From Escherichia coli (GTDB lineage Bacteria > Pseudomonadota > Gammaproteobacteria > Enterobacterales > Enterobacteriaceae), in the NCBI RefSeq assembly GCF_024223415.1, contig NZ_CP100500.1: 64,000 bases of DNA; one strand, written 5' to 3'. How positions within the stretch are numbered: the stretch's first letter is position 1; the number at the start of each line of letters is the position of its first letter. Of this stretch, positions 1 through 37,951 are shown piece after piece. The notes under the pieces were generated by a model. It was not told where the DNA came from. It saw nothing but the letters and a program-made list of their open reading frames with translations, and searched no databases. The position numbers were made by a program, and so were the translations under genes.

Positions 1-1538
1 TATTCAGCTGGCAGTGCTATGCGCCACGGAAGCAGTTCGCTGACCCGGTTGACCGGCCAGTCTGCTATGACGCCAAGCACATGGCGAAGGTAGCTTTCTG
101 GATCCACGTCATTCAGTTTGCACGTCCCTATCAGGCTGTACAGTAGCGCTCCCCGCTCACCACCATGGCCAGAGCCGAAGAACAGGAAGTTTTTACGACC
201 CAGACTTACCGCCCGCAGGGCATTTTCAGCGATGTTGTTGTCGATTTCCACCCAGCCATCGTTCGCATAGTACGTCAGTGCCGGCCACTGGTTAAGTGCG
301 TACGCGAACGCCTTCGCCAACTCTGAGTGTCGCGACAGGGTCTTCATCTTTTCACGCAACCAGCTTTCCAGGGATTTCAACAGCGGTTTCGTTTTTCGCT
401 GACGTTCAGCAAGCCGCTGCTCTGCCGGCATTCCCCTTATATCCGCCTCTATGGCGTACAACTGACCGATCTGCTCCAGGGCTTCTTCCGTCAGTGCTGA
501 CGGGATGCGGACGTGCACATCGTGGATCTTTCGGCGGGCATGAGCCCAGCAGGCAGCTTCCGTTATCCCACCATTGCGATACAGCTCGTTGAACCCGGCG
601 TACGCATCCGCTTGCAGCACACCGCTGAAGCAAGCAAGATGAGTCTGCGGATGGATGCCTTTTCTGTCCGGGCTGTAAGCGAACCACACTGCAGGTGCCA
701 ACGCTGACCCGGCATTGCGGTCATCACGAACATACGCCCACAACCGCCCGGTCTTCGTCTTCTTATTACCCGGCATCAGTACCTGGACCGGGGTATCATC
801 GGCATGGAGTTTGCCGTCAGTCATGACATAGCCATGAAGCGCCTCTTCCAGCGGAGACAGCAGCCGGCAGCATGCATCCACCCAGCCCGACAGCAGTGAA
901 CGGCTCAGCTCCACACCTTGCCGGCCGTATATTTCTGACTGGCGATACAGCGGGGTGTGCTCTGCATACTTCGAGGTCAGCACGCGGGCCAGCAGCCCCG
1001 GTCCGGCGATACCCCGCTCGATGGGCCGCGAAGGTGCAGGTGCCTGCACGATGGCATCGCACTGAGTACAGGCATGTTTTTCCCGTACCGTCCGGATAAC
1101 CCGGAAGGCGCTACGCATCAACTCCAGCTGTTCGGCGGTATCCTCGCCCAGATAGCTCAGTGAACCGCCGCAGTTCGGGCAGCACGGCGCCGCAGGCAAC
1201 AGTCGCTTTTCGTCACGGGGTAGTGATTCAGGGAACGGCTTACGGATGCGGGTCTGACGCAACGGACGCTGTACTGCCGGGTCATACACCCTACCAGTCA
1301 GCGTATCGCTCTCTTTCTGAAGCTGGTTCAGATCGGCTTCCATTTGTGCGATACGGCGGGAGACTTTTTCGGAACGACTGCCGAAGTTCATCCGGCGGAG
1401 TTTATCCAGCTGCGCCTGCAGATGGTCTATTTCGCGCTCCCGGTTGCTCAGCTTTTCCTGCAGGGCGTGGATCAGCGCTTCCTGTTCGGCCAGGCGCTGT
1501 TTCAGCAGGAAGATGTCGTCAGAAGAGATGTCGTTCAT
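1..1538 (-). CDS. IS66-family transposase (orf3), about 512 aa; stop codon runs off the window edge so it is absent from the ORF track
   Basis: Minus-strand translation starts [30 protein letters not shown] at 1538, contains the CPNCGG motif near 1160-1200, and ends ...PWRIALPAE at position 3; no in-frame stop listed in that frame. Confidence 0.85.
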
Positions 1539-1587
1539 AAGCCCGTATTTTACCGGGCTTATTCTGTGACAACCAGGATAAAGAGAT

Positions 1588-1935
1588 TTACAGCATGGTC
1601 AGGGAGGTCAGCAGCCGCTTAGGCTGTCGCCAGTCGATACCTTCCAGCAGCATCGCCAGCTGCGCCTGTGTAAGGAACACTTTGCCATCACGGGCTGACG
1701 GCCAGGCGAAGCGCCCACGCTCCAGCCGTTTGGTCAGGAGGCACAGTCCGTCACCGGTGGACCACAGCAGTTTAACCTGACTGCCGCTGCGGCCCCGGAA
1801 AATGAAAACATGGCCGGACATGGGATCGTCTTTCAGCGCCGTCTGTACTTTCGCAGCCAGGCCGTTGAAGCCATTTCTCATATCGGTGATACCGGCAACC
1901 AGCCAAATTTTGGTCCCGGAAGGTAAAGGGATCAT
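1588..1935 (-). CDS. IS66 Orf2-like accessory protein (TnpB of IS66 family)
   Basis: 115-aa [33 protein letters not shown]..., matches the IS66 orf2 family from memory. Confidence 0.85.
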
Positions 1936-2333
1936 CGCTTCAGTTCCTGTATCAGCAGAGTCAGGAGCTTTTCGCTGACATTGCCATTGAAGCGGAGCGT
2001 CCCGTGCCGGAACGTTACCTCACAGCTGATACTGAGGGTTTCCGGGTCCTCTGCGAGCGATTCTGGCTGTTCGGCAGCTGCATCGAGAGTCACAGGAAGT
2101 AGCTGGGGGCTCTCTGAAGAAGGTAATAGCAGCTTTCCCTCGCGCCATTGTTGTCGCCATTTGAACAACAGATTGGCGTTAATGCCATTTTCAAGAGCAA
2201 GTTTTGAGATGGATATCCCGGGTTCACAGGAGGCAGCAACGAGCTGCTGTTTAAATTCGGGAGGATAATTAGGGCAGCCTTTTCGCCTGCCGGGAGTCAC
2301 ATTTTTCTGCATATCTGACACTTTGGTTCCCAC
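1932..2333 (-). CDS. IS66 Orf1-like accessory protein
   Basis: 133-aa ORF overlapping orf2 by 4 bp, as is typical for IS66 family elements. Confidence 0.75.
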   Translation of the reverse strand: MGTKVSDMQKNVTPGRRKGCPNYPPEFKQQLVAASCEPGISISKLALENGINANLLFKWRQQWREGKLLLPSSESPQLLPVTLDAAAEQPESLAEDPETLSISCEVTFRHGTLRFNGNVSEKLLTLLIQELKR

Positions 2334-2764
2334 TACTTATTTGGTGGACACCACTTTGTCTAATTCGTCAGATTCTGACCAGACGGTTCAGGCTGTACGC
2401 TTACGCCTGAAAGCTGACTGCCTCCTGCTGAGGTGGGAGGCTATGATTCAGTGCGTTTATAGTCTCCGGGGTATGCATGTACCGGAGCATACCATTTCTG
2501 GTGGATAACAAGCCGGCACATTCAGACTGCAGTGAAGATGGAGGCACCTGGTTGTGAAGAACGTTTCTGCCCGTGGCTGCTTCGCATCATCAATGGTATT
2601 CATACCCGCTCAGAAATGACCGGGTGCTGAAGCCCTCCGTTATCGCGCAGTATAATGACGTATATGATCTGTGGACGAGTGAGCGGCGTGCCTGATGTAC
2701 GCCGCTATTACTGTATTTTACCACAGGGCTGGTTTTCTGCTGCCAGCCCTGTGGTTCTCAGACA

Positions 2765-3373
2765 TCAACTGTGAGCGGCATCAACCGATGTACGGTATGC
2801 CATAAGCACGTACTGATCCATCAGATTTGTCAGTGGTTCACTCTGACCCTGACGTGCAATGATCCATTGCTCCAGATCTTTTTCTGATTTGTGTTTCAGG
2901 TTTTTCGTCCAGTCGTCAAGGCTGTTTCCGGTCATTAAGTCAAGCCAGCAGAGCCAGACCAGTTTGAGACGTAACTCCGTGCCGCCAAACTGACGGAAGA
3001 GGCTGATCAGTTTGTTTGCCAGAGAATGTTGCTTCAGGCGCTCACATTCAGACAGCAGGATCCCTTCCAGCATCGGATGATGAACCAGCAGGTGTTCGCT
3101 GGTGCATAAATTCACCACCAGATCATCATCCAGGGACGGGGAGCTCCGTTTGTCCGGACCATAAATCAGCCGGTGCAGACTCTGGGGAACGATGGCAATC
3201 TCCGGTTTTTCGCCATTGAATGACACCCACCCGGGCGTCAGATTATGGAAATAGTAGATATTCGGATGACACACGCCCCATGATACGGCGTGCCGGGTGA
3301 AGCCGGTCAGCCATTTCTGGTAGTTTTCATGGAGCAGCTCGTAACGGGTCTGATACTGTTGTTTCATTTTCAT
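2765..3373 (-). CDS. hypothetical protein, island-associated, co-transcribed downstream of the alpA-like gene
   Basis: 205-aa ORF; likely start at an ATG a few codons inside the listed GTG start, with a GAGGA ribosome-binding site upstream; no family recognised. Confidence 0.5.
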   Translation of the reverse strand: MKMKQQYQTRYELLHENYQKWLTGFTRHAVSWGVCHPNIYYFHNLTPGWVSFNGEKPEIAIVPQSLHRLIYGPDKRSSPSLDDDLVVNLCTSEHLLVHHPMLEGILLSECERLKQHSLANKLISLFRQFGGTELRLKLVWLCWLDLMTGNSLDDWTKNLKHKSEKDLEQWIIARQGQSEPLTNLMDQYVLMAYRTSVDAAHS

Positions 3374-3460
3374 ATTCCTCACGGGGGATAACAGGCAGCA
3401 GAGCGCCGCCGGCAGGCCGGAGATTGCGTCTGCTGTGGGCGAAGGGTTAGTGGTTAAAAA

Positions 3461-3667
3461 TTACGGACGGGACTGTGCAATACGCGCCTGCAGCCAGGCT
3501 TCCACTTCACTTTTCAGCCAGCGGGAGCTGCGCCCCATTTTGATGGGCGCAGGAAAGCCCCCATCTTTGATGAGTTTGTCAAACCACTTATCGGTTAGGC
3601 CGGTCAGTTGAGTGATAAACGCCATGTCGACCATCTGGTCATCCATCAGCGAAACTGGGGTAGCCAT
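3461..3667 (-). CDS. AlpA-family phage regulatory protein (excisionase-like DNA-binding protein), about 68 aa
   Basis: MATPVSLMDDQMVDMAFITQLTGLTDKWFDKLIKDGGFPAPIKMGRSSRWLKSEVEAWL - typical AlpA/MerR-like HTH; start placed at the internal Met. Confidence 0.8.
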   Translation of the reverse strand: MATPVSLMDDQMVDMAFITQLTGLTDKWFDKLIKDGGFPAPIKMGRSSRWLKSEVEAWLQARIAQSRP

Positions 3668-4792
3668 GAGAATGTTCCTCCGGATGTTGTTAAACCAGCC
3701 GGTGTGGTCATGAAAACAGCGCGCCACCTTCACCGGCATAACAACCGGGGAGAAACGTAAAAAATAATCGGGAATGTGGCTGTCCGGAGATAAACGGGGG
3801 GATTGCGATGGCAGAGCCGTAGCGGAATCCCGGAGGGGGGTGTTGCAAAAGATGCTTCCGCACGCACGCGCGATAAAGAGGGGATAGTTTTCGTGAGGAC
3901 AGGGAGAGAAGCAGGCGTTCTGATAATTGCAGAGTTGTTTTCGGAGGTGGTTACAGTGAGTCAGCCCGTTCCTGGCGAGCAGGAGACTGATATCACCGAT
4001 GGGATAAGGTTGTCTGATTGGTATTATAAATATAAGAAGTCATCAGAGAGTAACGTAAAGGATTTGCCAGAATAACCTAAGAGAGTAAATCTCTCCGGTA
4101 ACAGAGCGCTATGAAGCATTCTGTATCAGAGTGCAGATACATGAACGCTGATGCGTAAAATCAGCAGTGACACGCCAGCTCCCCCTATGCCCATTCCTGT
4201 ATAAGACATGAACTGAGTGTATTAATGCTTCTGCCCTGAGACTGAGCCGGTGAGTGAGGGGCTGAGAAATCCCTCTTGACACAGCTCTAACCAGAAATAC
4301 TTCCCCGGTTGTTGCGGTGCGTCCGGATCCCCGATAACGGAACACTAAGGCTGTATTGCGGGACACCGGGTAAGTAGCAGCCCGTAAGGCGTTCTGTCAA
4401 CGCCAGAAAAAATGATTTCCCACACGCGTTATAGACTCACTCCTGTGGACCTGGAAGCCCGTAACTCTGCGGTTGCCCACTGACTGACGGAACTGACCGC
4501 AAATTTTACGAGTGCGTGCTGGGCTTCAGTCTGGTCACCTGAGCGTTCGGTAACGGAGGCGCGGGCGGTAATAGGCTGATTTTCAGGTATTACCGGCTTA
4601 CAGCGTGTGGTTGATATTGAGGGGCTGTGAGTTTCGCGTATTTGTCAGAAACCCAGACGAGTTTTCCTGTATGGGACGAAATAAGGCAGCGGCAATACCT
4701 GGAAAAATTTAATATGGTATGAAGGAGAACCTGTCGGTTACGCTTAATATACCCGGTACACTGTCAGCTCAGGGGATACATGAACCGTTATC

Positions 4793-4993
4793 TCACCAGC
4801 TACACAGTATATACACACTGACGCTGACAGTAGTCAGCAGGACCACAATAATCAGTGCCAGCAGTATGGTAACGATACGGTCTGTATTCCGGTAATAGCC
4901 GAAGGGGTCGACAGAACCACAATACGGGCAACACACTGTATTATGAGTAATCGCGTTTCCACAGTCCCTGCACTTCTTTTTGCGTATCACCAT
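4793..4993 (-). CDS. small zinc-ribbon protein with C-terminal transmembrane helix (about 66 aa), function unknown
   Basis: CRDCG...CCPYCG double CxxC followed by a hydrophobic stretch ILLALIIVVLLTTVSVSVYIL; GGAGGG ribosome-binding site 5 nt upstream of the ATG. Confidence 0.5.
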   Translation of the reverse strand: MVIRKKKCRDCGNAITHNTVCCPYCGSVDPFGYYRNTDRIVTILLALIIVVLLTTVSVSVYILCSW

Positions 4994-5156
4994 CACTCCC
5001 TCCTCACAGCCTTACCCGTAACCGGTTTTTTACATTAAAAAAACAACGCTGAAAATTCAACCGTCAGTCCGGAGACGACCGTTCGGGTTATCACAGAGTG
5101 CCTGAGACAGTGTCCTGCCGGAGGTCACTTCAGGGACTCTGCGCATTTTTTACGAC

Positions 5157-5762
5157 GTGGCTATTCCGTATGAACCATACGGAGATTTAACCATGACCTA
5201 CAAATACAACCCCTTCTGGCAGCAACGTATTCGTGAGACGGTGCGGCACGCACTGAATGTTCATCCCCGCCTGACGGCATTGCGGGTTGACCTGCGTTTC
5301 CCGGATGTACCGGCAGCAACGGACGCAGCTGTGATATCCCGCTTCATCAATGCCCTGAAAGCCCGAATCGACGCTTACCAGAAACGTAAGCATCGGGAAG
5401 GTAAACGCGTGCATCCCACCACCCTGCATTACGTCTGGGCCCGGGAGTTTGGGGAGTGCAAAGGTAAAAAACACTATCACCTGATGCTGCTGGTTAACCG
5501 GGATACCTGGTGTCGTGCCGGTGATTACCGTGCTCCGGGATCACTGGCCGGGATGATTAAACAGGCGTGGTGCAGTGCCCTGGGAGTGGATGTCGGGTGC
5601 CATGCCACGCTGGTGCATTTTCCGGCCTGGCCGGCGGTGTGGCTGGAACGCGATGATGACACTGGCTTTCAGCAGGTGCTGGAACGTGCTGACTATCTGG
5701 CGAAGGAACATACCAAAGCTCACTGCACCGGTGAGCGCAATTTTGGCTGTAGCCGGAGTTGA
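5157..5762 (+). CDS. HUH-type rolling-circle Rep-like protein (inovirus Gp2 / YagK-YfjJ-like family)
   Basis: 201-aa ORF with the motif KKHYHLMLLV (His-hydrophobic-His) and candidate Tyr motifs; family assignment from memory, not searched. Confidence 0.55.
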   Translation: MAIPYEPYGDLTMTYKYNPFWQQRIRETVRHALNVHPRLTALRVDLRFPDVPAATDAAVISRFINALKARIDAYQKRKHREGKRVHPTTLHYVWAREFGECKGKKHYHLMLLVNRDTWCRAGDYRAPGSLAGMIKQAWCSALGVDVGCHATLVHFPAWPAVWLERDDDTGFQQVLERADYLAKEHTKAHCTGERNFGCSRS

Positions 5763-6015
5763 GCACGACTGGCGCGCCAATATCCGGCAAACCAAAAGTA
5801 TGGGTTGTTGTCTGGCGGCAACGATGTATCCACTCGCCCACTGACTGTTTTTTACGTCAGTGTTCCATTGTGTGACAACCACAGTGCTGTAACAGCAACC
5901 AGCCTGCTTTACCCAAACTCCAGTCCAGATTTTAACTGAACCGCCATTCACACCCTGACCACGCTGCCCGTACCGGGACGGCTGTTGCCTGCGTGTCGTC
6001 TGGCGGCTGAGGAAT

Positions 6016-6423
6016 ATGACTATGTACGCAAAATCCTTTATCGCTCTTGATGGCAACGGACGTCTGACGGGCGCCCGTACTGCACAGGCCGCACCTTATG
6101 CTAACTACACCTGCCACTTGTGTGGCAGTGCACTCAGATACCATCCGCAATACGACACTGAACTTCCCTGGTTTGAACACACTGACGACAGGCTGACAGA
6201 GCACGGTCAACAGTGCCCTTATGTCAGGCCGGAGCGCAGAGAAATACAGTTGATTAAACGTCTGCAGCAATTCGTACCGGATGCCTTACCCGTGGTGCGT
6301 AAAGCCAGCTGGCACTGCAGACAATGTCACCACGATTATTATGGGGAGCGGTACTGCACACACTGCCAGACCGGAGGATTCAGTATTCCCCGGACAACTC
6401 AGGAGGAAATATGCGAATTCTGA
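6016..6423 (+). CDS. Cys-rich hypothetical protein A (putative double zinc-ribbon)
   Basis: 135-aa ORF; conserved pattern CxxC...PWFEH...C...CxxC...DYxGExxCxxC shared with the next ORF. Confidence 0.55.
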   Translation: MTMYAKSFIALDGNGRLTGARTAQAAPYANYTCHLCGSALRYHPQYDTELPWFEHTDDRLTEHGQQCPYVRPERREIQLIKRLQQFVPDALPVVRKASWHCRQCHHDYYGERYCTHCQTGGFSIPRTTQEEICEF

Positions 6424-6821
6424 ACTGTTATATGGCGAATGACAGCAAAGGCCATTTTGTTACGGCGAAAGAAGCAGCGAAGCACAACCGCCAGGACGTT
6501 TTGTGCTGTGTGTCCTGTGGATGCCCGTTAACACTTCAGCGGGGCAATGACGGACAACCACCGTGGTTTGAACATGACCAGATGACTGTCGCTGAGAAAA
6601 TCCTGCTGCGATGCACCTGGCTTGACCCGGCAGAGAAAGAGGCCCGTCGTTTGCATCTGCAGGGTATGACGGTTCCGGATTATACGGTGAAGGTGAGAAA
6701 GTGGTTTTGTGTGATGTGTGACGAAGATTATGAAGGAGAAAAGTGCTGCCCGCGTTGTGGTACCGGGGTATACAGCAGGGAGGGGGGGCTGCAGGAAGGC
6801 AACTGGAAGGATAGGAACTGA
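6411..6821 (+). CDS. Cys-rich hypothetical protein B, paralogue of A, translationally coupled
   Basis: ATG at 6411 lies just upstream of the stop of the previous ORF (6421-6423); same Cys/PWFEH pattern. Confidence 0.55.
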   Translation: MRILNCYMANDSKGHFVTAKEAAKHNRQDVLCCVSCGCPLTLQRGNDGQPPWFEHDQMTVAEKILLRCTWLDPAEKEARRLHLQGMTVPDYTVKVRKWFCVMCDEDYEGEKCCPRCGTGVYSREGGLQEGNWKDRN

Positions 6822-7024
6822 GCGGTTCAGTCGCGGAAATCAGTTGCAGAGCTGTAATGATATCTCCGGGAGTGCTGCGTTGGTAGGGGCATCCCGGGAT
6901 AGAGAAATTTTAGCACTTTGCCCTGAATGATTGTAGACGTTCCGAGTACTCGTACCGGTCTGAGTTATTACAGTTAGATATTCACTTTTTCTCCCGCATA
7001 CTTCACATCTGTCAACGACGGATG

Positions 7025-8757
7025 AAAAGTGGTTCTTCCGCAACCTGGGTGGAAGAAAATGGATGAAACTTTCTGGCGAACAAGGATCTAAGCTGTTTTA
7101 AGTTATGGGCAACGCAATGCACTCTCTTAAGACACTTCTACAGTTACCTTGCGGATGGCGATGCAGTCGACAAATTATTAGCTCTGACGGTATAACCCTC
7201 CATCTCCACGGAAAACGCAAAACAGCACAATGTCCTGAATGCTTTAAGCGTAGCGACTCTGTTCATAGTTGTCGTCGGCGCCGGATACAGCATCTACCCT
7301 GCTCAGGGCAGACGCTATGGCTTGTATTTTCCGTCCGCCACTGGTACTGCCGTAACCCGGCTTGTTCACGTAAAATTTTTGCCGAGTCGCTTGCTCCCTT
7401 CGCCGGTTCACACCAGCAGTCTTCACAGGCGTTACAAAATTTACAACGTCAACTGGGATTAATAGCTGGAGGTGAGGCTGGAAAACGGGCTGCAACGGCA
7501 GCGGGTCTCCGTTGCAGTGCTGATACTCTTCTTCGCAGGGTATCAATACCCCGGAGACGAAACAGTCAGGCGCGCCTCATGTCGGTATTGATGAGTGGGC
7601 GTGGCATCGGGGCCACTGCTGCGGTATGTTAATAGTCAATCTTGATACTCACCGTCCCCTCGTCCTGCTTCCCGGCCGTGATCAGCGTACGCTGGCGACC
7701 TGGTTCAGAAAATATCCGGAAATACAGGTTGTCTCGCGTGATCGCAGTGGAGTCTATGCGACAGCAGCACGTGAAGGTGCACCTCAGGCCAGACAGGTGG
7801 CCGATCGATGGCACCTGCTAAAAAATATTGGTGATGAGCCTGAACGAATGATGTACAGACATATGCCTCTGATACGTCTTGTTGTCAGAGAGTTATCACT
7901 GAAGAAATCACCTGAGCCAGAAATATCTGTGCCTGTAGCATCGCTCCGTCGTCTGGAACGCCTTAAACAGCACATCCGCAAAAAACGGCATCAGCGTTGG
8001 ACAGAGGTTATGGCCCTGCATAACAAGGGATGTAGTTTCAGGGAAATATCCCGTATTACAGGCCTGTCGCGAGTGACAGTCAGTCGCTGGGTGGGTTCAG
8101 GAACATTCCCTGAAATGTCAACTAGGCCTCCAAAGCGAGGGCTTCTGGACCCATGGAGGGAGTGGTTAAAAGAGCAACGAGAATGTGGTAATTATAACTC
8201 CGGCCGGATATGGCGGGAAATGGTGGCCAGGGGGGTTACAGGCAGTGAAACCATCGTCAGGGATGCTGTTGCCAAATGGCGTAAAGGCTGGATCCCACCG
8301 GTTACTACTGCCGCAAGACTTCCTTCAGTGTCCCGGGTAAGCCGCTGGTTGATGCCCTGGAGAATAATCAGGGGTGAAGAAAATTATGCTTTCCGATTTA
8401 TTAGTCTGATGTGTGAAAAAGAACCGGAGTTGAAAATAGCGCAGCAACTGGTACTCGAGTTCTACCGTATTCTGAAAACCTAAAATAAATCACAGCTAAG
8501 CAGCTGGTTCACTCGGGTCCACGAAAGCGGCTCAGCAGAACTTCGGTGCGTAGCTGCGGGGATGGAAGCTGATGCTGCGGCTATATGTGAGGCAATCAGC
8601 AGTCGCTGGAGTACTGGTGTTGTCGAAGGTCATGTAAATCGCCTGAAGGTGCTGATACGCCAGATGTATGGTCGAGCCGGACTTGAACTACTTAGGCGGA
8701 GGGTAATGAGTCCACTGGCATGAAAATCTTCACCCAGGTTGCGGAAGAGCCACTTTT
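7025..8757 (+). mobile_element. ISL3-family insertion sequence with imperfect terminal inverted repeats, decayed
   Basis: Left end aaaagtggttcttccgcaacctgggtg at about 7025-7051 and its near-perfect reverse complement at about 8731-8757; encloses an ISL3-type transposase. Confidence 0.7.
7105..8722 (+). pseudogene. ISL3-family transposase, disrupted by a frameshift near 7588 and an in-frame TAA at 8481-8483
   Basis: N-terminal zinc-finger region (CPECF...), ...IDEWAWHRGHCCGMLIVNLDTHRPL readable only after a frame change, then ...VVEGHVNRLKVLIRQMYGRAGLELLRRRV continues in frame after the stop. Confidence 0.75.
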
Positions 8758-8766
8758 GCACTGTTC

Positions 8767-9095
8767 GTGACAGTATGGCCTTTATGTACTCACTTTGTTA
8801 CCGGTAGCTGGATCATCACTACCGTGCTGCAAATGGTGGTGAACAGCATCAATTGTGGAATGAATGTTGCCGAAGCGACCAATGCGCCTCGTTTCCACTA
8901 TCAGTGGTTGCCGGACGAGCTGCGTGTTGAAAAGGGTTTAGTCCGGATACGCTCAAGCTGCTGGATGCAAAAGGTCAGAAAGTGGCGCTGAATGAGGCGA
9001 TGGGCAGCACGCAAAGCATTATGGTTGGGTCGGATGGTGAGTTGTACGGCGCATCCGACTCGCGCTTGGTGGATGATTTAACGGCGGGGTATTAA
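8767..9095 (+). pseudogene. ggt: gamma-glutamyltranspeptidase C-terminal fragment, frameshifted in an A-run near 8935
   Basis: GSWIITTVLQMVVNSI...NAPRFHYQWLPDELRVEKG then, after a 1-nt frame change, FSPDTLKLLDAKGQKVALNEAMGSTQSIMVGSDGELYGASDSRLVDDLTAGY; starts directly at the ISL3 right end. Confidence 0.7.
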
Positions 9096-13180: not shown

Positions 13181-13287
13181 GCTTCACCTCACTTCAGTTA
13201 CGTTAATATCTATCGATGTATATTGATGTGATAATCACCATAAAGTGGCGGGGAAAAGCAAAAAAAAGCAAAAATAGCCTGAGAAAA

Positions 13288-13850
13288 GGTAAGCGTTAAT
13301 GGAGAATCATATTGATGCTTATTTATTGGTGAGAACTACGTTCCATGGCAGGAGTTCATCAATACGGTTGGAAGGTTATTCCGGCAGTACGCTCAGGATA
13401 TGGCGCAGATACGCTTCCGGATCAATGTCGTTCAGAAGGCAAGTGCCGATAAGCCCATACAACAGTGCACTGCGCTCGCCGCCGAAGAACATAAAGTTTT
13501 TATTTCCGAGACAGATGGCACAAAGGGCTTTTTCCGCGGCATTATGTCTGCCTCCGCCTGACCGTCAACACTGTAATAACAGAGTGCGCCCCACTGATTC
13601 AGTACACAGCTGAACCATTCTCCCAGTCTGGATTTTTGGATAGCGTGGCATTTTTCTCCACCATGCATGCAGTGAGTCCAGTAACAGTTTGCTCTTCTTC
13701 TGCCTGACCACAAGATGTGCTGGACTGGTAAACGATGGGGATACCTGCTTACGCGAGAGCAATAAGTGGCTGGCCACAATTCTCGGTACAAAACTCTGCT
13801 GAATAGCAGCGATTTTCCCAGCGTGGTGCGTCGTTTTCATTTTACTGGTT
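13288..13850 (-). mobile_element. IS66-family remnant: terminal repeat (GTAAGCG at 13288) plus frameshifted 3' part of a transposase gene
   Basis: Minus-strand translation near 13327-13380 gives PSNRIDELLPWNVVLTNK*, resembling the IS66 transposase C-terminus; upstream frames are broken. Confidence 0.6.
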
Positions 13851-15230
13851 CTAAGTTAACAATTATCTGTTCACTAATGACTACTCTAAAAACTTGTATC
13901 AGGACTATCACTTATTTAAGTGATATTGGTTGTCTGGAGATTCAGGGGGCCAGTCTATAAACTTTTTACAAAAGGATGAATGCAGAAGGTTACTCTAATG
14001 GCCAGAGTGATGACAATGATGGTCAGACGTTGACCTGCAGAAACTGCATTTTAATTGGTCTATAAAGTCTGCAAGAGGAATCAGGGTCAGATCAGTGAGT
14101 CTTATCGCGGCCCGAAGCTATGACTGAAAGAAGGCTGGATACAGAATTGCAACAATTTGGCAATGTCAGAACACAGAAGCTTTGCAAGCAGGTGAAAGGT
14201 TATGTCTAGCAAAAGGAGTATATCAGAATACATCTACTGATGTACAAAACACAACAATAGCTTCATGATATATAAATACGTGATGACGAGTGGTACTCCG
14301 CATGGTTATTTAACTTCTCAGCACCACTAATGATCCTGAGCAACTTCGTATTTGGGCCATTGCCATGGAGTAGAAAGCTGTGTCTGAGAATGCAGAATTT
14401 GAGAAAAGAATTCGCTTTCTTGGAGAGCTTCTGAAAATGGCACGCTAACAACGTTTTGTTAAAAAATGTGAATCACTTGCCGGGGCTGCATTTTCTATTC
14501 GAGGAGAATGTTGACGTAGATATTACAGAAATCTCAGCGCATCAGGATAAACTGCTACCTTAGGTCAACCACCAAAAGAAAATACAATACGTCCAGTTTG
14601 TATGCCTTTAATAACACATCTTCTAAATGTTGAAGAATTATCCCGCCTGCTGAAGAACGTTGCTCTGAGTGTGATAAACCTTTTTATTCTTGATGATGTC
14701 AGCGAGAAGATGGAATATATCCCCGACTGGGTCGTGGTTACCCGGTTAAACATCTGGTGGCGCTAATAAATCTGGCAAGTCACATTCTGTTGAATGCTGT
14801 GACAGTGCCTTACCGAGAGAGCGAAATTGTGGTGTTCTAGTGCATAGTCGCCACCATTCCGGATAATTCTATTGCGTTGTTTTACAAGTTCTTTTACAGC
14901 GCAGATCTGTTGCTGACGTTGAATCAATAGCCTGGATTTCAGAACACAATGCCCGTTTGCTGGTTGGTCCGGCAGTAGCATTAATTCATTATCTGAATGA
15001 AATGTGTCAATCCACAGAAACCGCTGTCAATGACACATTTTGTCGGACGTTAACACGAGAAAGTCTGGCTATTCCGTAATGCCATCTTATTTCGTAATGG
15101 ATTGAGAATGCTGGATTTTTAATTATATTACGCGCAGTATTAATCGCGTAAATGTTTTGCGGTCAGCAACGGTGGGGGATCCATTGTTCTGTTCAATGAA
15201 TACCATCATACATTTGAATCAGGAGTCGGT

Positions 15231-18659: not shown

Positions 18660-18735
18660 TGGCTCCTCTGACTGGACTCGAACCAGTGACATACGGATTA
18701 ACAGTCCGCCGTTCTACCGACTGAACTACAGAGGA
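18660..18735 (-). tRNA. asnV: tRNA-Asn (GUU)
   Basis: Reverse complement matches the E. coli tRNA-Asn sequence including CCA. Confidence 0.95.
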
Positions 18736-18990
18736 ATCGTGTGAACGGGGCGCATATTAATGGCAGTGCATGGTGATGTCAAAGGGTGAAATGCATTTTT
18801 TTGTTTGTTTGCTGCCAATTTCAACAAAGTGGTGAGCTTTCAATCTTATTGGGTAATGAACCATCGTGGTGCATACCCTCCTTTTATAGGGCAGGTGAAT
18901 GCGACTGCAGATAAAAAGAGCCAATGACGAATCTATCATAATCTCTTATTTGACAGTTGGTTAGCTTGCGCATCAACGCCAAAATAGAAC

Positions 18991-19006
18991 TGGCAAGCAT
19001 CTTGCA
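18991..19006 (+). promoter_or_regulatory. sigma-54 promoter (-24/-12 element) for nac
   Basis: TGGCAAGCATCTTGCA fits TGGCAC-N5-TTGCA with correct GG-N10-GC spacing, about 55 bp upstream of the nac ATG. Confidence 0.7.
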
Positions 19007-19061
19007 TTCTGGTTGTAAGTAATGGCGGCACTTGGGCCGACTCTTAAAAACCGGAGGCAAC

Positions 19062-19979
19062 ATGAACTTCAGACGCCTGAAATACTTCGTAAAAATTGTA
19101 GATATTGGTAGCCTGACCCAGGCTGCTGAAGTATTGCATATCGCACAACCAGCGCTCAGCCAGCAGGTTGCCACACTGGAAGGTGAGTTTAATCAACAAC
19201 TTTTGATTCGCACAAAACGGGGCGTTACGCCAACTGACGCCGGAAAAATTCTCTATACCCATGCGCGGGCCATTTTACGTCAGTGTGAGCAGGCCCAACT
19301 GGCGGTGCATAACGTTGGTCAGGCATTATCGGGGCAAGTCTCGATTGGCTTTGCGCCAGGAACCGCTGCGTCATCCATCACCATGCCCTTATTACAGGCG
19401 GTTCGCGCTGAATTCCCGGAGGTCGTTATCTATCTTCATGAAAATAGCGGTGCAGTGCTTAACGAAAAACTGATAAATCACCAACTCGATATGGCGGTGA
19501 TTTATGAGCATTCCCCTGTGGCTGGTGTATCCAGTCAGGCTTTACTGAAAGAAGATCTTTTCCTGGTAGGGACTCAAGATTGTCCGGGGCAAAGCGTTGA
19601 TGTTAATGCTATTGCGCAAATGAACCTCTTTCTTCCCAGTGATTACAGTGCTGTTAGACTTCGTGTTGATGAGGCTTTTTCCCTACGGCGACTCACGGCA
19701 AAAGTCATTGGTGAAATTGAGTCTATTGCCACGCTTACCGCAGCGATTGCCAGCGGCATGGGCGTTGCAGTATTACCCGAATCGGCCGCGCGTTCGTTAT
19801 GTGGCGCAGTAAACGGGTGGATGTCACGCATTACCACACCTTCCATGAGTCTCTCTTTGTCATTAAATTTACCCGCCAGAGCGAACTTATCACCACAGGC
19901 ACAGGCAGTGAAAGAGTTGTTAATGTCAGTGATGAGTTCTCCAGTGATGGAAAAAAGGCAGTGGCAATTGGTGAGCTAA
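19062..19979 (+). CDS. nac: nitrogen assimilation control protein, LysR-family regulator
   Basis: 305 aa, MNFRRLKYFVKIVDIGSLTQAAEVLHIAQPALSQQV. Confidence 0.95.
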   Translation: MNFRRLKYFVKIVDIGSLTQAAEVLHIAQPALSQQVATLEGEFNQQLLIRTKRGVTPTDAGKILYTHARAILRQCEQAQLAVHNVGQALSGQVSIGFAPGTAASSITMPLLQAVRAEFPEVVIYLHENSGAVLNEKLINHQLDMAVIYEHSPVAGVSSQALLKEDLFLVGTQDCPGQSVDVNAIAQMNLFLPSDYSAVRLRVDEAFSLRRLTAKVIGEIESIATLTAAIASGMGVAVLPESAARSLCGAVNGWMSRITTPSMSLSLSLNLPARANLSPQAQAVKELLMSVMSSPVMEKRQWQLVS

Positions 19980-20080
19980 GCGTTATATCGGGATGGAATA
20001 AGATGCGGGTTTTTATTATTTGTTATGCCGGGCATTAGACTTTAACAATAACGGAAAATCTGAACTGCCCGGAGTTTACC

Positions 20081-21031
20081 GTGAATTTCCAACAACTAAA
20101 GATAATCCGCGAGGCTGCACGTCAGGATTACAACCTGACAGAGGTTGCGAATATGCTTTTTACCTCACAGTCCGGCGTCAGCCGTCATATTCGGGAACTG
20201 GAGGATGAACTTGGCATCGAAATATTTGTTCGACGAGGTAAGCGACTGCTGGGCATGACTGAACCGGGCAAAGCATTACTGGTCATTGCTGAACGTATTC
20301 TGAATGAAGCCAGTAATGTTCGTCGGCTTGCAGACCTGTTTACCAACGATACGTCTGGCGTTCTCACTATTGCAACGACGCATACTCAGGCACGTTATAG
20401 TTTGCCAGAGGTCATTAAATCTTTTCGCGAACTTTTCCCGGAGGTTCGGCTCGAGCTAATCCAGGGGACGCCACAGGAAATTGCGACGTTGTTGCATAAT
20501 GGTGAAGCTGATATTGGTATCGCCAGCGAGCGTTTGAGTAATGACCCGCAGCTCGTCGCCTTCCCGTGGTTTCGTTGGCACCATAGTTTGCTTGTTCCAC
20601 TCGATCATCCCTTGACGCAAATTACACCATTGACGCTGGAATCAATAGCGAAGTGGCCGTTAATCACTTACCGACAGGGGATTACGGGGCGCTCACGTAT
20701 TGATGACGCATTTGCCCGCAAAGGTTTGCTGGCAGATATTGTATTAAGTGCGCAGGATTCTGATGTCATTAAAACCTATGTTGCTCTTGGGCTTGGGATC
20801 GGAATAGTTGCCGAACAATCCAGCGGTGAACAAGAGGAAAAGAATTTAATCCGCCTGGATACGCGGCATCTTTTTGATGCTAATACTGTCTGGTTGGGAC
20901 TGAAGCGAGGACAACTTCAGCGTAACTATGTCTGGCGCTTTCTGGAACTTTGTAATGCAGGGCTTTCAGTTGAGGATATCAAGCGGCAGGTGATGGAAAA
21001 CAGTGAAGAGGAAATTGATTATCAGATATAG
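20081..21031 (+). CDS. cbl: CysB-like LysR-family regulator
   Basis: 316 aa, MNFQQLKIIREAARQDYNLTEVANMLFTSQSGVSRHI. Confidence 0.95.
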   Translation: MNFQQLKIIREAARQDYNLTEVANMLFTSQSGVSRHIRELEDELGIEIFVRRGKRLLGMTEPGKALLVIAERILNEASNVRRLADLFTNDTSGVLTIATTHTQARYSLPEVIKSFRELFPEVRLELIQGTPQEIATLLHNGEADIGIASERLSNDPQLVAFPWFRWHHSLLVPLDHPLTQITPLTLESIAKWPLITYRQGITGRSRIDDAFARKGLLADIVLSAQDSDVIKTYVALGLGIGIVAEQSSGEQEEKNLIRLDTRHLFDANTVWLGLKRGQLQRNYVWRFLELCNAGLSVEDIKRQVMENSEEEIDYQI

Positions 21032-21033
21032 CA

Positions 21034-21060
21034 AAAAGCCCGCTATAAAAGCGGGCTTTT
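21034..21060. terminator. Rho-independent terminator after cbl
   Basis: aaaaagcccgctataaaagcgggctttt. Confidence 0.7.
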
Positions 21061-21068
21061 CAGAAATT

Positions 21069-21144
21069 TGGCTCCTCTGACTGGACTCGAACCAGTGACA
21101 TACGGATTAACAGTCCGCCGTTCTACCGACTGAACTACAGAGGA
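21069..21144 (-). tRNA. asnU: tRNA-Asn (GUU)
   Basis: Identical sequence to asnV. Confidence 0.95.
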
Positions 21145-21304
21145 ATCGCTGTTGAGGCACATCTTAACGGCGAAAAATCTTTTGTCAAACCCGATTTTTA
21201 ATTTTCCCAACTGTTTGCCGTTTCTATCAACAGTTTGTTGCATTTGCAGACAATTTGTTGGCGAAAATCTTTGCAGCTTTGCTGATTCTCCCTCATTATT
21301 TGAA

Positions 21305-22792
21305 ATGTGGTTTCACTTTCTGCAATTAAGGTCGGCTTTGAATATCTCCTCTGCTTTACGCCAGGTTGTTCACGGCACTCGCTGGCACGCTAAACGCAAG
21401 AGCTACAAAGTGTTGTTCTGGCGCGAGATAACCCCGCTTGCTGTTCCTATCTTCATGGAGAATGCCTGTGTCCTGTTGATGGGGGTTCTGAGCACTTTTC
21501 TGGTCAGCTGGCTGGGAAAAGATGCGATGGCCGGCGTGGGATTGGCGGACAGCTTCAATATGGTCATTATGGCTTTTTTTGCTGCTATCGATCTTGGTAC
21601 TACTGTCGTTGTGGCATTTAGTCTCGGTAAGCGGGATCGACGACGAGCGAGGGTGGCGACGCGGCAGTCATTGGTGATCATGACGTTGTTTGCCGTACTG
21701 TTGGCAACGATTATTCATCATTTTGGCGAGCAAATTATTGATTTTGTCGCGGGTGATGCCACGACAGAAGTTAAAGCACTGGCGTTGACTTATCTGGAGC
21801 TGACGGTACTCAGTTATCCAGCAGCTGCCATCACTTTGATTGGTAGCGGGGCACTTCGTGGTGCAGGGAATACGAAAATACCGCTACTGATTAACGGTAG
21901 CCTGAATATTCTTAATATTATTATTAGCGGCATATTGATTTACGGCCTTTTCTCCTGGCCGGGACTGGGATTTGTCGGGGCTGGGTTGGGGTTAACCATT
22001 TCTCGTTATATTGGCGCAGTGGCAATTTTGTGGGTGCTGGCGATTGGTTTTAATCCTGCGCTAAGGATTTCGTTAAAGAGCTATTTTAAACCGCTGAATT
22101 TTAGCATTATCTGGGAAGTCATGGGGATTGGTATTCCCGCGAGTGTCGAATCAGTGTTATTTACCAGTGGTCGGTTATTAACCCAAATGTTCGTTGCCGG
22201 GATGGGGACCAGTGTTATTGCCGGAAATTTTATCGCGTTTTCAATTGCGGCTCTTATCAACTTACCCGGAAGTGCGCTCGGCTCTGCTTCTACGATCATT
22301 ACAGGCCGAAGGTTGGGTGTAGGACAGATAGCGCAAGCAGAGATTCAGTTGCGGCATGTGTTCTGGCTTTCCACTCTTGGATTAACGGCCATCGCCTGGC
22401 TAACGGCTCCCTTTGCCGGGGTTATGGCATCGTTTTACACCCAGGATCCACAGGTTAAACATGTCGTTGTGATTCTGATTTGGCTAAATGCTTTATTTAT
22501 GCCTATTTGGTCTGCCTCATGGGTGCTACCCGCTGGATTTAAGGGTGCTCGCGATGCACGTTACGCCATGTGGGTTTCTATGTTGAGCATGTGGGGTTGC
22601 CGGGTTGTAGTCGGTTATGTGCTGGGAATCATGCTTGGCTGGGGTGTGGTTGGTGTCTGGATGGGAATGTTTGCCGACTGGGCTGTGCGGGCCGTGCTGT
22701 TTTACTGGCGAATGGTTACTGGACGTTGGCTGTGGAAATATCCTCGACCTGAGCCGCAAAAGTGTGAAAAAAAGCCAGTTGTGTCGGAATAA
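21305..22792 (+). CDS. yeeO: MATE-family efflux transporter
   Basis: 12-TM MATE-like protein; start placed at the internal Met giving 495 aa (the ORF track extends further upstream to 21152). Confidence 0.85.
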   Translation: MWFHFLQLRSALNISSALRQVVHGTRWHAKRKSYKVLFWREITPLAVPIFMENACVLLMGVLSTFLVSWLGKDAMAGVGLADSFNMVIMAFFAAIDLGTTVVVAFSLGKRDRRRARVATRQSLVIMTLFAVLLATIIHHFGEQIIDFVAGDATTEVKALALTYLELTVLSYPAAAITLIGSGALRGAGNTKIPLLINGSLNILNIIISGILIYGLFSWPGLGFVGAGLGLTISRYIGAVAILWVLAIGFNPALRISLKSYFKPLNFSIIWEVMGIGIPASVESVLFTSGRLLTQMFVAGMGTSVIAGNFIAFSIAALINLPGSALGSASTIITGRRLGVGQIAQAEIQLRHVFWLSTLGLTAIAWLTAPFAGVMASFYTQDPQVKHVVVILIWLNALFMPIWSASWVLPAGFKGARDARYAMWVSMLSMWGCRVVVGYVLGIMLGWGVVGVWMGMFADWAVRAVLFYWRMVTGRWLWKYPRPEPQKCEKKPVVSE

Positions 22793-22892
22793 ACGACAAA
22801 GTGCAGATTATTTCAGCAAACGATTTCAAATTTAAAAAACAGGCTTTGACATTGTGGATGAGCGTCGCTAATATTCGCCTCGTTCTCACGAT

Positions 22893-22968
22893 TCCTCTGT
22901 AGTTCAGTCGGTAGAACGGCGGACTGTTAATCCGTATGTCACTGGTTCGAGTCCAGTCAGAGGAGCCA
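22893..22968 (+). tRNA. asnW: tRNA-Asn (GUU)
   Basis: TCCTCTGTAGTTCAGTCGGTAGAACGGCGGACTGTTAATCCGTATGTCACTGGTTCGAGTCCAGTCAGAGGAGCCA. Confidence 0.95.
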
Positions 22969-23029
22969 AATTTTAGTTTTGAGATATCTCTATAAGTCTC
23001 AAAACAGTTAAAAAATAAAAATTATTTTT

Positions 23030-23067
23030 ACCCGGCCGCTTTGTAAAAAAAAGTGGCCGGGTTTTTT
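23030..23067 (+). terminator. Rho-independent terminator downstream of asnW
   Basis: acccggccgctttgtaaaaaaaagtggccgggtttttt. Confidence 0.6.
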
Positions 23068-23423
23068 GATTTCTGTGTTTCGTGCGCTTAATCGAGTCTC
23101 ACGCTTCAGTGAGCAAATTGCCCCTCCCCAACAGACATCACGATTCACAGGGTCAAAAATTCTGTTCCATGAAGTACCGTACAAAGATAAAGAGAAAAAT
23201 GCCTTATGCGGGATGTAGCTGTCGCGTCTTTATCGGGAAACTATACGTAATTGCCACTTTGTCTTCGGTAATCAGAAAAAGAAGACCTGGAATTTTAATA
23301 AATATTATTTCTCTGGGGGCGGTATTTTTATAATCAATATGACGAGTTGAACATTATATTTATTATAAGAATTATATGAAATTAAAGAAATCTGCCATAA
23401 AGACAGATTTCTTTAAAATATAA

Positions 23424-24140
23424 TTAGAGATTTGCGACGTTATGATAAACTTTTTGAACATCGTCGTCATCTTCAAGGGCATCAACAAGCCCTTCAAAGA
23501 TTTCTAAATCTTCTGGGGAAAGCTCAACTTCAGATTGAGCAATCATTTCTAATTCTGTTGTTGAGAACTCAGTGATTCCAGCAGCTTTTAGAGCCGCGAT
23601 TCCTTTATGAAGGTCAGTAGGTTCAGTATAAATAACAATATTACCTTCTTCTTCAGTTACATCACGAACATCAACTTCAGCTTCAAGTAAAATTTCAAAA
23701 ATATGGTCAGGGTCTGTTCCTTTAAATACAATCACACCCGTATTGTCAAACATATAGCTGACAGAACCTGCCGCTCCGATATTGCCGCCTTTTTTATTGA
23801 AAATTGTGCGAACGTTAGCAATCGTACGGTTAACATTTGAAGTCAAGGTCTCGGCGATAATCATTGAGCCATTAGGACCAAAGCCTTCATAACGGCCCTG
23901 CACGAACGTTTCATCTCCGCCGCCTTTGGCTTTATCAATTGCTTTATCAATAACATGCTTTGGAACTTGTGCCTGCTTTGCTCGTTCAATAACGAATTTT
24001 AAAGATGTGTTTAATTCTGGATCGGGTTCACCTTGTTTGGCAGCAGCATAGATTTCTACACCGAATTTTGCATAAATTTTAGACGTCGCACCGTCTTTAG
24101 CCGTTTTTTTAGCAACAATATTGGCCCATTTACGTCCCAC
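23424..24140 (-). CDS. yeeN: YebC/PmpR-family probable transcriptional regulator
   Basis: 238 aa, [27 protein letters not shown]. Confidence 0.9.
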
Positions 24141-24481
24141 TGGAATGATCTCCTCGAAAATTTATTTACATTACTGGTAAATCGTTAACATGTGTTAATT
24201 CGGCATATTATATCATAACAGGAAAAATCTCGTCTATTAGAAATAAAAATATTCTAAATCCATAATCTTATATTTAATCTCATAAAAACTAATGTTGTTG
24301 GCGGATTTTTTTATAATTGTGTTTTGAAAGCATACTTGCTTTTAATATGTGGAAATCATTAAGGCTATAATAAAACTCGCATCTGCCCAAGGAAGCAAAC
24401 AGCCTGCTTTATTGCAGGCTATTTGCTGGATGACTTACTAAATCCTTCACATCTATTCCTGATAAAAAGGAACAGAACTTA

Positions 24482-25936
24482 TTACCGGAACGGCGGTTCA
24501 TTAAAGGTTCGTAATTTACGTGAATGCAGTCGGTCGCCTTCTGCGCGCAGCAAATCGATCGCCCGAATGCCAATTTGCAGGTGTTCGGAAATAGCGCCTT
24601 CATAAAAACGGTTAGCCTGACCGGGAAGTTTAATCTCACCATGCAACGGTTTATCTGAAACACACAGTAGTGTCCCGTATGGCACGCGGAAACGATATCC
24701 TTGCGCGGCAATGGTTGCACTTTCCATATCAATTGCTACGGCCCGGCTTAAGTTAAAACGAAGTGCAGAAGCTGAGTAACGTAATTCCCAGTTCCTGTCA
24801 TCTGTGGTTACCACAGTGCCAGTACGTAGCCGCTGTTTAACTTCCTCACCGGGCCTGCCGCTGACTAACTTGGTAGCGTCATAAAGCGCACGTTGCACTT
24901 CAGCAATGCTCGGAATAGGAATATCGGGCGGCAGTACCGCATCAAGAACGTGGTCATCGCGTAAATAAGCGTGTGCAAGTACATAATCTCCAATGGCCTG
25001 GCTTTCACGTAAGCCACCACAGTGACCAATCATCAACCAGACATCCGGGCGTAGTACTGCCAGATGATCGCAGATGGTTTTAGCATTTGACGGTCCCACG
25101 CCAATATTCACCAGAGTAATACCCTGACCATCGGCGGTAATTAAATGCCATGCTGGCATCTGGTGTTTTTTCCATGCAAGGTCGGAAATGGCTTCTTCTG
25201 GCGCTTCGGTTTCGGCGGTGATCCAGTTCCCGCCAGCACAAGAAAGGGCAATGTAGGGACTATCAGGATCGAGGATCTGGCTGCATCCCCAACGAACGAA
25301 TTCATCCACATAACGTGTGTAGTTGGTAAACAAGACGAACGGCTGAAAATGTTCAACTGGCGTACCGGTATAATGGCGCAACCGCGCGAGGGAAAAATCG
25401 ACGCGGCGCGCATCAAAATGCGATAGCGGGGAGAATTCCGTTGGATGATAAATGCCGTCTGCAGTTTCATCGCCAATTTGCGCCAGTTCTGTTGTCGGGA
25501 AGTAGCGAGTTAACCCAGCGCTCATTGAGCGATCAAGGGTCAATTCTGAGCCATCGATGACATAAGGATAAGGGATTTCATGCTGCGAGGGTTGCACCGA
25601 GATATGCGCACCATAATCCTGATACAGCAACGTAAGTTGTTCATTGAGATACGAACGAAAGAGAGTAGGGCGAGTAATCGTGGTGGTGTAGCTGCCTGCG
25701 TGGGTAAAACGACCAAATGCGCGCGTTTTGGGGGGATTGGTTGTGCTACCGTCCCAGGTTACGGTCAGTGATGGATAGACAAAAAGACCTTGTTTGCGGG
25801 CGTTTTCATCAGGTAATTCGCCACTTTTAATATATTTGCCAATGGCGTTGCGTAAAGCGACTACAGATTGCTCATACAGCGCGTCGAGTTTATCCAGTGC
25901 CTGAGCTGGGGTCAGACCGGAGCCCTTATTATTCAT
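24482..25936 (-). CDS. amn: AMP nucleosidase
   Basis: 484 aa from the internal Met MNNKGSGLTPAQALDKL. Confidence 0.9.
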   Translation of the reverse strand: MNNKGSGLTPAQALDKLDALYEQSVVALRNAIGKYIKSGELPDENARKQGLFVYPSLTVTWDGSTTNPPKTRAFGRFTHAGSYTTTITRPTLFRSYLNEQLTLLYQDYGAHISVQPSQHEIPYPYVIDGSELTLDRSMSAGLTRYFPTTELAQIGDETADGIYHPTEFSPLSHFDARRVDFSLARLRHYTGTPVEHFQPFVLFTNYTRYVDEFVRWGCSQILDPDSPYIALSCAGGNWITAETEAPEEAISDLAWKKHQMPAWHLITADGQGITLVNIGVGPSNAKTICDHLAVLRPDVWLMIGHCGGLRESQAIGDYVLAHAYLRDDHVLDAVLPPDIPIPSIAEVQRALYDATKLVSGRPGEEVKQRLRTGTVVTTDDRNWELRYSASALRFNLSRAVAIDMESATIAAQGYRFRVPYGTLLCVSDKPLHGEIKLPGQANRFYEGAISEHLQIGIRAIDLLRAEGDRLHSRKLRTFNEPPFR

Positions 25937-26037
25937 GTGTGTCTCCTGTTCCATACAATTACCGCACATCCGATAGTATGTCACAGGAATGTGAAACAAA
26001 AGTGTAAGGCGAAGATCGGATGATCTTCGCCAGGCTA

Positions 26038-27354: not shown

Positions 27355-27596
27355 AATGATCCTGTTTGTACTGTCTTTTTATAATTAGTATGGAAAAGGT
27401 AACTCACATTGCCGTCGATCTATAAACGAACCTTATGAGACTACCTCGACAGAGCGCATCTGCAAATGATTTTATGGCTGATTAACGGCAACATGAAAAA
27501 TTCGATGGAAGATGAAAGCGCAGGAGTTGCATAAGGATTAAGCAGGGCACCTACAGTTTTGAGATATGAAACATAAAAGTCCGCATATGCACAAAA

Positions 27597-28712: not shown

Positions 28713-28971
28713 GGAGTACTTATGCATAGTAGTACCGAACTGTTATGAACGGTGGTGTCATCAATACTCTGAGGCTGGTCAATCATCACAGAAAGCCAGC
28801 CTTTGGATCAAAGCAATACTCACCAAATACGATCATAGTCACACCGAACGCGATTCAGGTGGTGCCGTATTGTTATTTATTCATTTTCTTTGAGAGAGGG
28901 CAAGCTCTATAGTGGGAATGTAAAAAAGAGTGCCCCGAATGGAGCACTCTTTAAGAAATTATAGCGGAAAA

Positions 28972-37638
<8,667 letters not shown>

Positions 37639-37875
37639 TATGATTGAAAATTAATAACTTTTCGTTAAGCAGTTTTGGGTGTGAGTTGCAAGAGGGGAGA
37701 CTACTGAATTACTCAAGTTTTGTAATCGAGGGGAAAATGGTGATGGCGTTCATAGCAAAACGCCCTCAACCATAAAGGTCGAGGGCGCTTAAGATGTCAA
37801 AAACCCGCTATCCGTTAAAAAGCAATGCTCAACTAAGGTCAGTGACATTGCGCTAAAAAGCGAATTTTTAGAATT

Positions 37876-37951
37876 TGGCTCCTCTGACTGGACTCGAACC
37901 AGTGACATACGGATTAACAGTCCGCCGTTCTACCGACTGAACTACAGAGGA
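37876..37951 (-). tRNA. asnT: tRNA-Asn (GUU)
   Basis: Identical to asnV/asnU. Confidence 0.95.

Follow-up and report, generated by a model that had tools for sequence, protein, structure and literature searches.

The window, a 64,000-nucleotide stretch of an Escherichia coli genome (contig NZ_CP100500.1), holds the right part of a genomic island: a copy of ISEc8, an AlpA-family gene (alpA) with its partner gene p200, a YagK/YfjJ-family (‘inovirus Gp2 family’) gene, and two zinc-ribbon genes. An ISL3 pseudogene, metabolic cargo genes, IS fragments, and the remnant of a cobalamin-biosynthesis gene follow, and beyond the island lie cobUST, ldtA, and four tRNA-Asn genes. Over positions 2400-5200, the window shares 99.9% identity with more than 1000 complete E. 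coli chromosomes, and 2135 of 5426 E. coli genomes contain 80% or more of this region. In the O104:H4 annotation, the matching stretch falls within an island that spans from the cobU side to tmaR/yeeX, a position that we take to be the chromosomal site of the K-12 cryptic prophage CP4-44. The island’s left half is outside the window and is observed solely in relatives. Both the near-identical O104:H4 island and sister islands have a backbone of GTPase, DUF932, antirestriction, RadC/JAB, and CbeA-CbtA genes; the corresponding side of the source strain’s island lies beyond the left edge of the window, past ISEc8.

The ISEc8 copy (IS66 family; 1-2408, minus strand) comprises tnpA, tnpB, and most of tnpC, with 99.9-100% identity to annotated ISEc8. 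Matches to annotated copies end at 2408-2410, ∼356 bp downstream of the p200 gene. From 2401 rightward the O104:H4 sequence matches the window, and left of 2401 it is different; the closest relatives have no ISEc8 at this site. On the other side of the core module, before the cargo, two consecutive ORFs (7105-8483, plus strand) make up an ISL3-family transposase pseudogene that is annotated in O104:H4 as ‘ISL3 family transposase, internal stop’. A gamma-glutamyltransferase fragment (8767-8991) follows this split transposase as a further sign of decay between core module and cargo. The island ends on the cobU side in an IS4 fragment and the cobalamin-biosynthesis gene remnant (∼14750-15111, plus strand; the coordinates are approximate, having been transferred from the O104:H4 annotation). 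Because the island is bounded by this cobalamin-biosynthesis (cbi) fragment at the cobU side and by a pduV-like (EutP/PduV) fragment at the yeeX side (L001 3321-3503), it occupies the place of the pdu-cbi region and not a tRNA attachment site. The four tRNA-Asn genes are spread across positions 18660-37951. The source strain lacks a yersiniabactin island at its asnT-equivalent gene (37876-37951) and retains an intact 2888-aa ORF (28972-37638); O104:H4 carries a yersiniabactin island with its integrase there, and its gene for a large Ig-like-domain protein is fragmented.

The AlpA-like gene (3461-3667, minus strand) encodes a small, single-domain protein of 68 aa that belongs to the AlpA family of DNA-binding proteins (HTH_17, MerR-like); its orthologues are 68-78 aa long. 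The ORF scores 25.2 bits against Pfam Phage_AlpA (PF05930; cut-off 21), is sub-threshold for HTH_17 (22.3 versus 27), and also matches PHROG excisionase/regulator families. The protein shares 70% identity with a Klebsiella orthologue that likewise precedes p200, and 33% identity, over 30 aa alone, with K-12 AlpA. A literature search found no paper on this AlpA subfamily, on p200, or on DUF7828, a domain encoded nearby (see below).

The preliminary description paired the AlpA-like gene with a co-oriented, unclassifiable ORF of 205 aa. Both the pairing and the ORF hold up, as the reading frame is intact and matches no known family, and its length needs correction. Alignment of homologues places the conserved start at an ATG at 3367, five codons inside the GTG start of the ORF at 2765-3382, so the protein, here called p200, has 200 aa (2765-3367, minus strand). 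Profile searches of Pfam, PHROGs, NCBIfam, PADLOC, and PDB returned no match for p200. An AlphaFold2 model, built from a 30-sequence alignment that included relatives of 27-32% identity, is confident (pLDDT 89.3, pTM 0.87) and mainly helical with one β-hairpin; it matches no known fold. Residues that are invariant across the family include His41, Gly102, Ser106, Glu107, Cys108, and Cys140, a pattern that hints at a putative catalytic or metal site. With no recognizable domain or fold to guide it, any role given to p200 is a guess. The family is narrow: a search of 1.84 billion representative sequences yielded 113 clusters at E < 1e-3, mostly fragments, and the named sources are almost all Enterobacterales. 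Nine of 72,556 plasmid records contain p200, and most of those are chromosome-sized; among 50,697 phage records there is one, a 3.6-kb fragment.

Between alpA and p200 lies a 93-nt spacer, and within it folding and a covariance model delineate a conserved, extended stem-loop that forms the p200 leader (3392-3442, minus strand). Its folding energy in the window is -20.9 kcal/mol, and the folds of 29 such spacers have a mean z of -1.93 relative to shuffled flanks. The inner helix, TCCGN/N'CGGA, is nearly invariant save for its closing pair, for which GC, CG, AU, UA, and UG are all observed. The outer stem varies from one subfamily to another through compensatory changes (CAGCAG/CUGCUG, UGACAGGCAG/CUGCCUGUCA, CAGCCAG/CUGGCUG, and GCCGU/ACGGC). 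RNAalifold recovered the inner helix only when run on a plain MAFFT alignment; the outer stem required per-sequence folding and the covariance model. In the model alignment, 86% of cells are paired, compared with 34-52% when the partner strand is slid, and seven pairs show double changes, although these pairing counts lean in favour of the structure because the alignment was fitted to it. G-U pairs are frequent in the stem, which favours an RNA of the sense strand over a DNA palindrome. The covariance model, built from one subfamily, matches just 5′ of p200 and at most once per locus, and the stem-loop keeps this position even at one locus that has a zinc-ribbon gene between alpA and p200. No Rfam 15 family matches positions 2300-7200 at E ≤ 1. 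The leader stem-loop covaries and is new to Rfam. Attenuation, processing, and protein binding are all possible roles for it, and p200 would be co-expressed with the AlpA-like protein through this hairpin.

A structured leader that stays with p200 even when another gene intervenes is also what would be expected if the AlpA-like protein worked on transcription. AlpA proteins act as activators or antiterminators in PICI satellites and in Pseudomonas aeruginosa. Applied here, the AlpA-like protein would be a transcription activator or antiterminator of p200 and of the Rep-like and helicase-like genes of the islands, and the hairpin would be a terminator or attenuator that it overrides. The hairpin itself does not favour such a role, however, since the canonical U-tract is absent after it and a promoter and terminator scan, which stayed at background, did not flag it as a terminator. 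We return to this explanation, the main rival to the one we prefer, with the neighbouring genes and the known satellites.

Upstream of alpA, the interval 3740-4790 had been described as lacking a convincing ORF and was proposed for a search for integrase fragments. It holds two recognizable features. The first is a conserved small ORF of 90 aa with a TTG start (3803-4075, plus strand), a candidate gene without a Pfam match whose product is 99% identical (74 of 75 residues) to a hypothetical protein of F9792. The second is a pseudogene of the Hha/YmoA family (∼4409-4534, plus strand), found by tblastn with the F9792 Hha-family product (24 of 43 identities) and interrupted by an in-frame stop. 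At this spot STEC1587 has an annotated Hha fragment, and the leuX island of F9792 has, in the same place, an annotated and uninterrupted Hha-family ORF of 58 aa. Translated searches of the interval gave no integrase fragment.

Next to this interval lies the gene for a 67-aa protein (4793-4996, minus strand) that has a zinc-ribbon motif and, at its C-terminus, a hydrophobic stretch. The protein is 98% identical to the F9792 copy (65 of 66 residues) and is conserved in sister islands; its database matches are weak (zinc-ribbon Pfam families, and phrog_38187 at E 1.6e-5). The YagK/YfjJ-family protein (5157-5762, plus strand; PF11726, E 1.1e-47) shares 36% identity with K-12 YfjJ and has a sub-threshold match to REP_ORF2-G2P; together with alpA it makes up the core module present in the window. 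Two overlapping tandem paralogues follow (6016-6821, plus strand), each with DUF7828 and Zn_ribbon_11 (Pfam E 2.8e-31 and 1.4e-30). Such paralogues accompany the cassette across genera, including in distant relatives.

The island lacks an integrase, as the preliminary description had noted. Tblastn with the K-12 IntA and leuX-island integrases found none in the 64 kb; the sole match, in the dsrB/rcsA region, is a chance one (E 0.012), and a control integrase was recovered at E 1e-53. Six-frame Pfam scans likewise found no recombinase domain in 3668-4792 (E ≤ 1), nor any recombinase at the island edge in 13181-15230, where an IS66 fragment was the only match. The att-like direct repeats whose search had been suggested were also absent: the 17-bp Asn-tRNA attachment core occurs in the window only within the four tRNA genes, and the ends of the O104:H4 island share no 11-mer or longer. 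The whole O104:H4 island, from the cobU side to tmaR, is similarly without an integrase. For CP4-44, the absence of an integrase and undetected excision have been reported (Wang et al., PMC3105296); that this site has no integrase is thus already published.

Where an integrase would have been is a separate matter. The preliminary description expected one beside alpA and explained its absence by decay or IS truncation. If an integrase had once adjoined alpA, in the 3740-4790 interval or at the position of the IS, and had been destroyed by decay or by an insertion, the island would lack one today, as it does, and IS elements are indeed abundant around the cassette. The contents of the interval do not fit this, since it consists of the Hha-family pseudogene and the small ORF, carries no recombinase signal, and is 92-98% identical to the same region of F9792, where the integrase is 37 kb from alpA. 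ISEc8 is not the cause of the loss either, because it lies downstream of p200, away from the side on which an integrase would be expected, and is missing here from the closest relatives. Decay of the island therefore stands as a description, and truncation by an IS does not. In none of 42 related loci (described below) does an integrase adjoin alpA, and we consider a lost neighbouring integrase very improbable.

Of 5426 complete E. coli genomes, 3334 (∼60%) carry the alpA-p200 pair, at a median of two copies per genome. Sister copies, ∼90% identical, lie in other E. coli islands within one common module. On one strand this module carries two zinc-ribbon genes and the YagK/YfjJ gene; on the other it carries a 66-aa zinc-ribbon gene, a region of ∼1 kb with an Hha gene or fragment, alpA, and p200. 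A convergent YfjI family gene is found in two of the three sister islands examined and is absent in F9792. A block of GTPase, Ag43, DUF932, antirestriction, JAB, DUF987, CbeA, and CbtA genes then follows. In F9792 the module is part of the leuX island, in which an integrase pseudogene abuts tRNA-Leu at the 37-kb distance given above.

Both genes of the pair are intact in every copy examined and are under purifying selection, as the preliminary description allowed in suggesting that the remaining genes may be functional. Comparison of E. coli paralogues gives dN/dS ratios of 0.05-0.18 (alpA) and mostly ∼0.2 (p200), or mostly 0.05-0.28 for the two genes together, values that, because they compare paralogues, partly reflect selection that acted while the copies sat in intact islands and so partly predates orphaning. 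This bears on the idea that both genes are inert relics that have yet to accumulate mutations. The surrounding island is littered with pseudogenes, and the loss of the integrase makes the presumed function moot. Against this, ratios well below 1, reading frames intact throughout, a retained leader structure, and the presence of the cassette in most complete E. coli genomes are not what relics would be expected to show, and we regard this explanation as improbable.

To place the cassette outside E. coli, one genome per species was scanned, and the loci were surveyed by tblastn together with their 10-kb flanks. The scan gave 42 loci, nearly all in Enterobacterales, including Yersinia, Serratia, Hafnia, Salmonella, Photorhabdus, Providencia, Morganella, Pectobacterium, Brenneria, Klebsiella, and Rahnella. 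The position of alpA could be evaluated in 41 loci; in 40 of them it immediately precedes p200 in the same orientation, at a median distance of ∼105 nt, and two loci have a zinc-ribbon gene inserted between the pair. Most loci also have a YagK/YfjJ family member beside alpA or p200 (immediately before alpA in 24 loci, immediately after p200 in 19), and a divergent GTPase and DUF932 block lies on the upstream side in 26. The cassette was always found within this same island backbone, beside the Rep-like gene, and never free-standing. Cargo directly downstream of it includes BREX in Klebsiella (L005 11772-20600) and a type VI secretion cluster in Yersinia (L006 16057-20597).

In six of the 42 loci the 10-kb flank includes an integrase, which in every case lies beyond p200, is encoded on the opposite strand, and is 4.1-9.1 kb away; in four of these six a tRNA-SeC or tRNA-Leu gene lies just beyond it. 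The 10-kb flanks of the remaining 36 loci yielded no integrase. The comparison with integrase-bearing relatives thus speaks against the expectation of a neighbouring integrase, which in these relatives lies across the cargo, beside a tRNA gene. Since the complete element runs from the tRNA through integrase, cargo, and core module to the backbone, its integrase is never beside alpA. Because alpA-family genes in this island family lie far from the integrase, a lone alpA is no evidence that a neighbouring integrase was lost. The E. coli segment is also inverted relative to the other genera. In E. coli, alpA and p200 share the direction of the GTPase block and diverge from the YagK/YfjJ gene, whereas in all 42 loci of other genera the YagK/YfjJ gene has the orientation of alpA and p200, and the GTPase gene is divergent from all three. 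Regulation may therefore differ between E. coli and the other genera.

The strict pairing of alpA with a partner from so narrow a family might instead reflect a two-gene system unrelated to mobility, for example one for addiction, defence, or anti-defence, with the HTH protein as its regulator. The islands are rich in defence cargo (BREX) and anti-restriction genes, and the invariant histidine, Ser-Glu-Cys, and cysteine of p200 could form a catalytic or metal site. However, p200 has no PADLOC match, the AlpA-like protein has weak, HTH-type PADLOC matches only (best E 5e-4), and the cassette is always embedded in one island backbone beside a Rep-like gene. We give this explanation little credence. 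An excision or regulatory module remains the most likely role of the cassette, and in the window that module is orphaned.

Several known islands resemble this one in part. K-12 CP4-44 has the same chromosomal site, belongs to the same island family, and also lacks an integrase. The gene order of the O104:H4 island presumably matches that of CP4-44. The scan found no p200 locus in the K-12 GTDB representative, so K-12 CP4-44 appears to be without the module of alpA-p200, YagK/YfjJ, and zinc-ribbon genes; the strain analysed here retains this module as well as metabolic cargo genes. CP4-57 (intA, alpA, yfjI, yfjJ) has the backbone of GTPase, DUF932, antirestriction, JAB, and toxin-antitoxin genes, an AlpA-family gene, and the 36%-identical YfjJ homologue. 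It differs in that its alpA is 1.2 kb from intA and in that no p200 homologue was found in it.

Separation of an AlpA-family gene from the integrase has precedents in other lineages. In the Salmonella island ROD21, the integrase SEN1970 and the AlpA-family directionality factor (RDF) SEN1998 are far apart (PMC6968874), and in Pseudomonas tmRNA islands intY lies at the end opposite to alpA and a Gp2-like gene (PMC12595487). ROD21 and the Pseudomonas islands I23, I44, and I55 thus share with the present family an AlpA-family gene that is far from the integrase, across the cargo, and the Pseudomonas tmRNA islands share, in addition, the adjoining inovirus Gp2-like gene. These islands belong to other lineages, use other integration sites, and have no reported p200. 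Moreover, a further block of 10-15 kb follows alpA in the present family, which places alpA away from the island end.

The PICI and P4-like satellites are similar in combining an AlpA-family regulator with a replication-type neighbour, represented in the sister islands by the YfjI family gene. Their integrase is adjacent and they carry packaging or capsid-redirecting genes, all of which our locus lacks; they are also smaller (∼10-15 kb, compared with 40-100 kb for islands of the present family). Apart from the AlpA family itself, no phage-type PHROG match was obtained at the locus. These observations bear on the reading of the AlpA-like protein as an activator or antiterminator. The YagK/YfjJ neighbour with its weak Rep_ORF2-G2P match, and the YfjI family gene in sister islands, would be plausible targets of such a regulator, and the distance from the integrase suits a regulator better than a dedicated directionality factor. 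On the other hand, phage-satellite genes are missing from the neighbourhood, and p200 is nearly absent from phage records. We therefore regard this explanation as unlikely overall, while giving it more weight than any of the other rivals.

We favour the interpretation that the locus is the core cassette of an Enterobacterales family of islands that use P4-type integrases to target tRNA genes, probably in a copy that has lost its integrase at the cobU site, and that its AlpA-like protein serves excision or expression of the island. The family would include K-12 CP4-57 and CP4-44 as well as pathogenicity islands bearing Ag43 and CbtA/CbeA. A complete member would be ordered as tRNA, integrase, variable cargo, and core (YagK/YfjJ Rep-like gene, alpA, p200, and zinc-ribbon genes), followed by GTPase, DUF932, antirestriction, RadC, and CbeA-CbtA genes. 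The tyrosine integrase beside a tRNA gene and the direct repeats that characterize tRNA-targeting P4-integrase islands are found in relatives and absent from the window copy, which is accordingly a degenerate member of the CP4-57/CP4-44-type islands.

Within such islands, the cassette would consist of three parts: the AlpA-family DNA-binding protein, the structured RNA leader, and p200. By analogy with CP4-57 AlpA and ROD21 SEN1998, we infer that the AlpA-like protein is an excision or transcription factor of the island family, one that would activate or direct excision and the expression of island genes. Here the cassette cannot excise its own island, because that island is without an integrase, a tRNA junction, and attachment repeats. 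An orphan copy may nevertheless persist by acting in trans on sister islands or by regulating neighbouring island genes. It is tempting to go further and to view alpA, the leader hairpin, and p200 as an undescribed, self-contained control cassette, in which p200, taken to have a new fold, would be the effector (e.g., a switch for excision, replication, or transfer), the RNA leader would gate it in response to AlpA or a host signal, and orphan copies would act in trans. We offer this bolder version as a conjecture and regard it as unlikely.

The finding of an island without an integrase is in itself ordinary and largely known, as the island is a common, annotated E. coli remnant. The cassette of alpA, leader, and p200 is apparently an undescribed feature, if a modest one. 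The analysis defines a strictly conserved gene pair whose second member is a narrow Enterobacterales family. Ag43, iron-uptake loci, and BREX are found in islands of this family; if the cassette controls island excision or transfer, it would provide a handle on the mobility of those islands.
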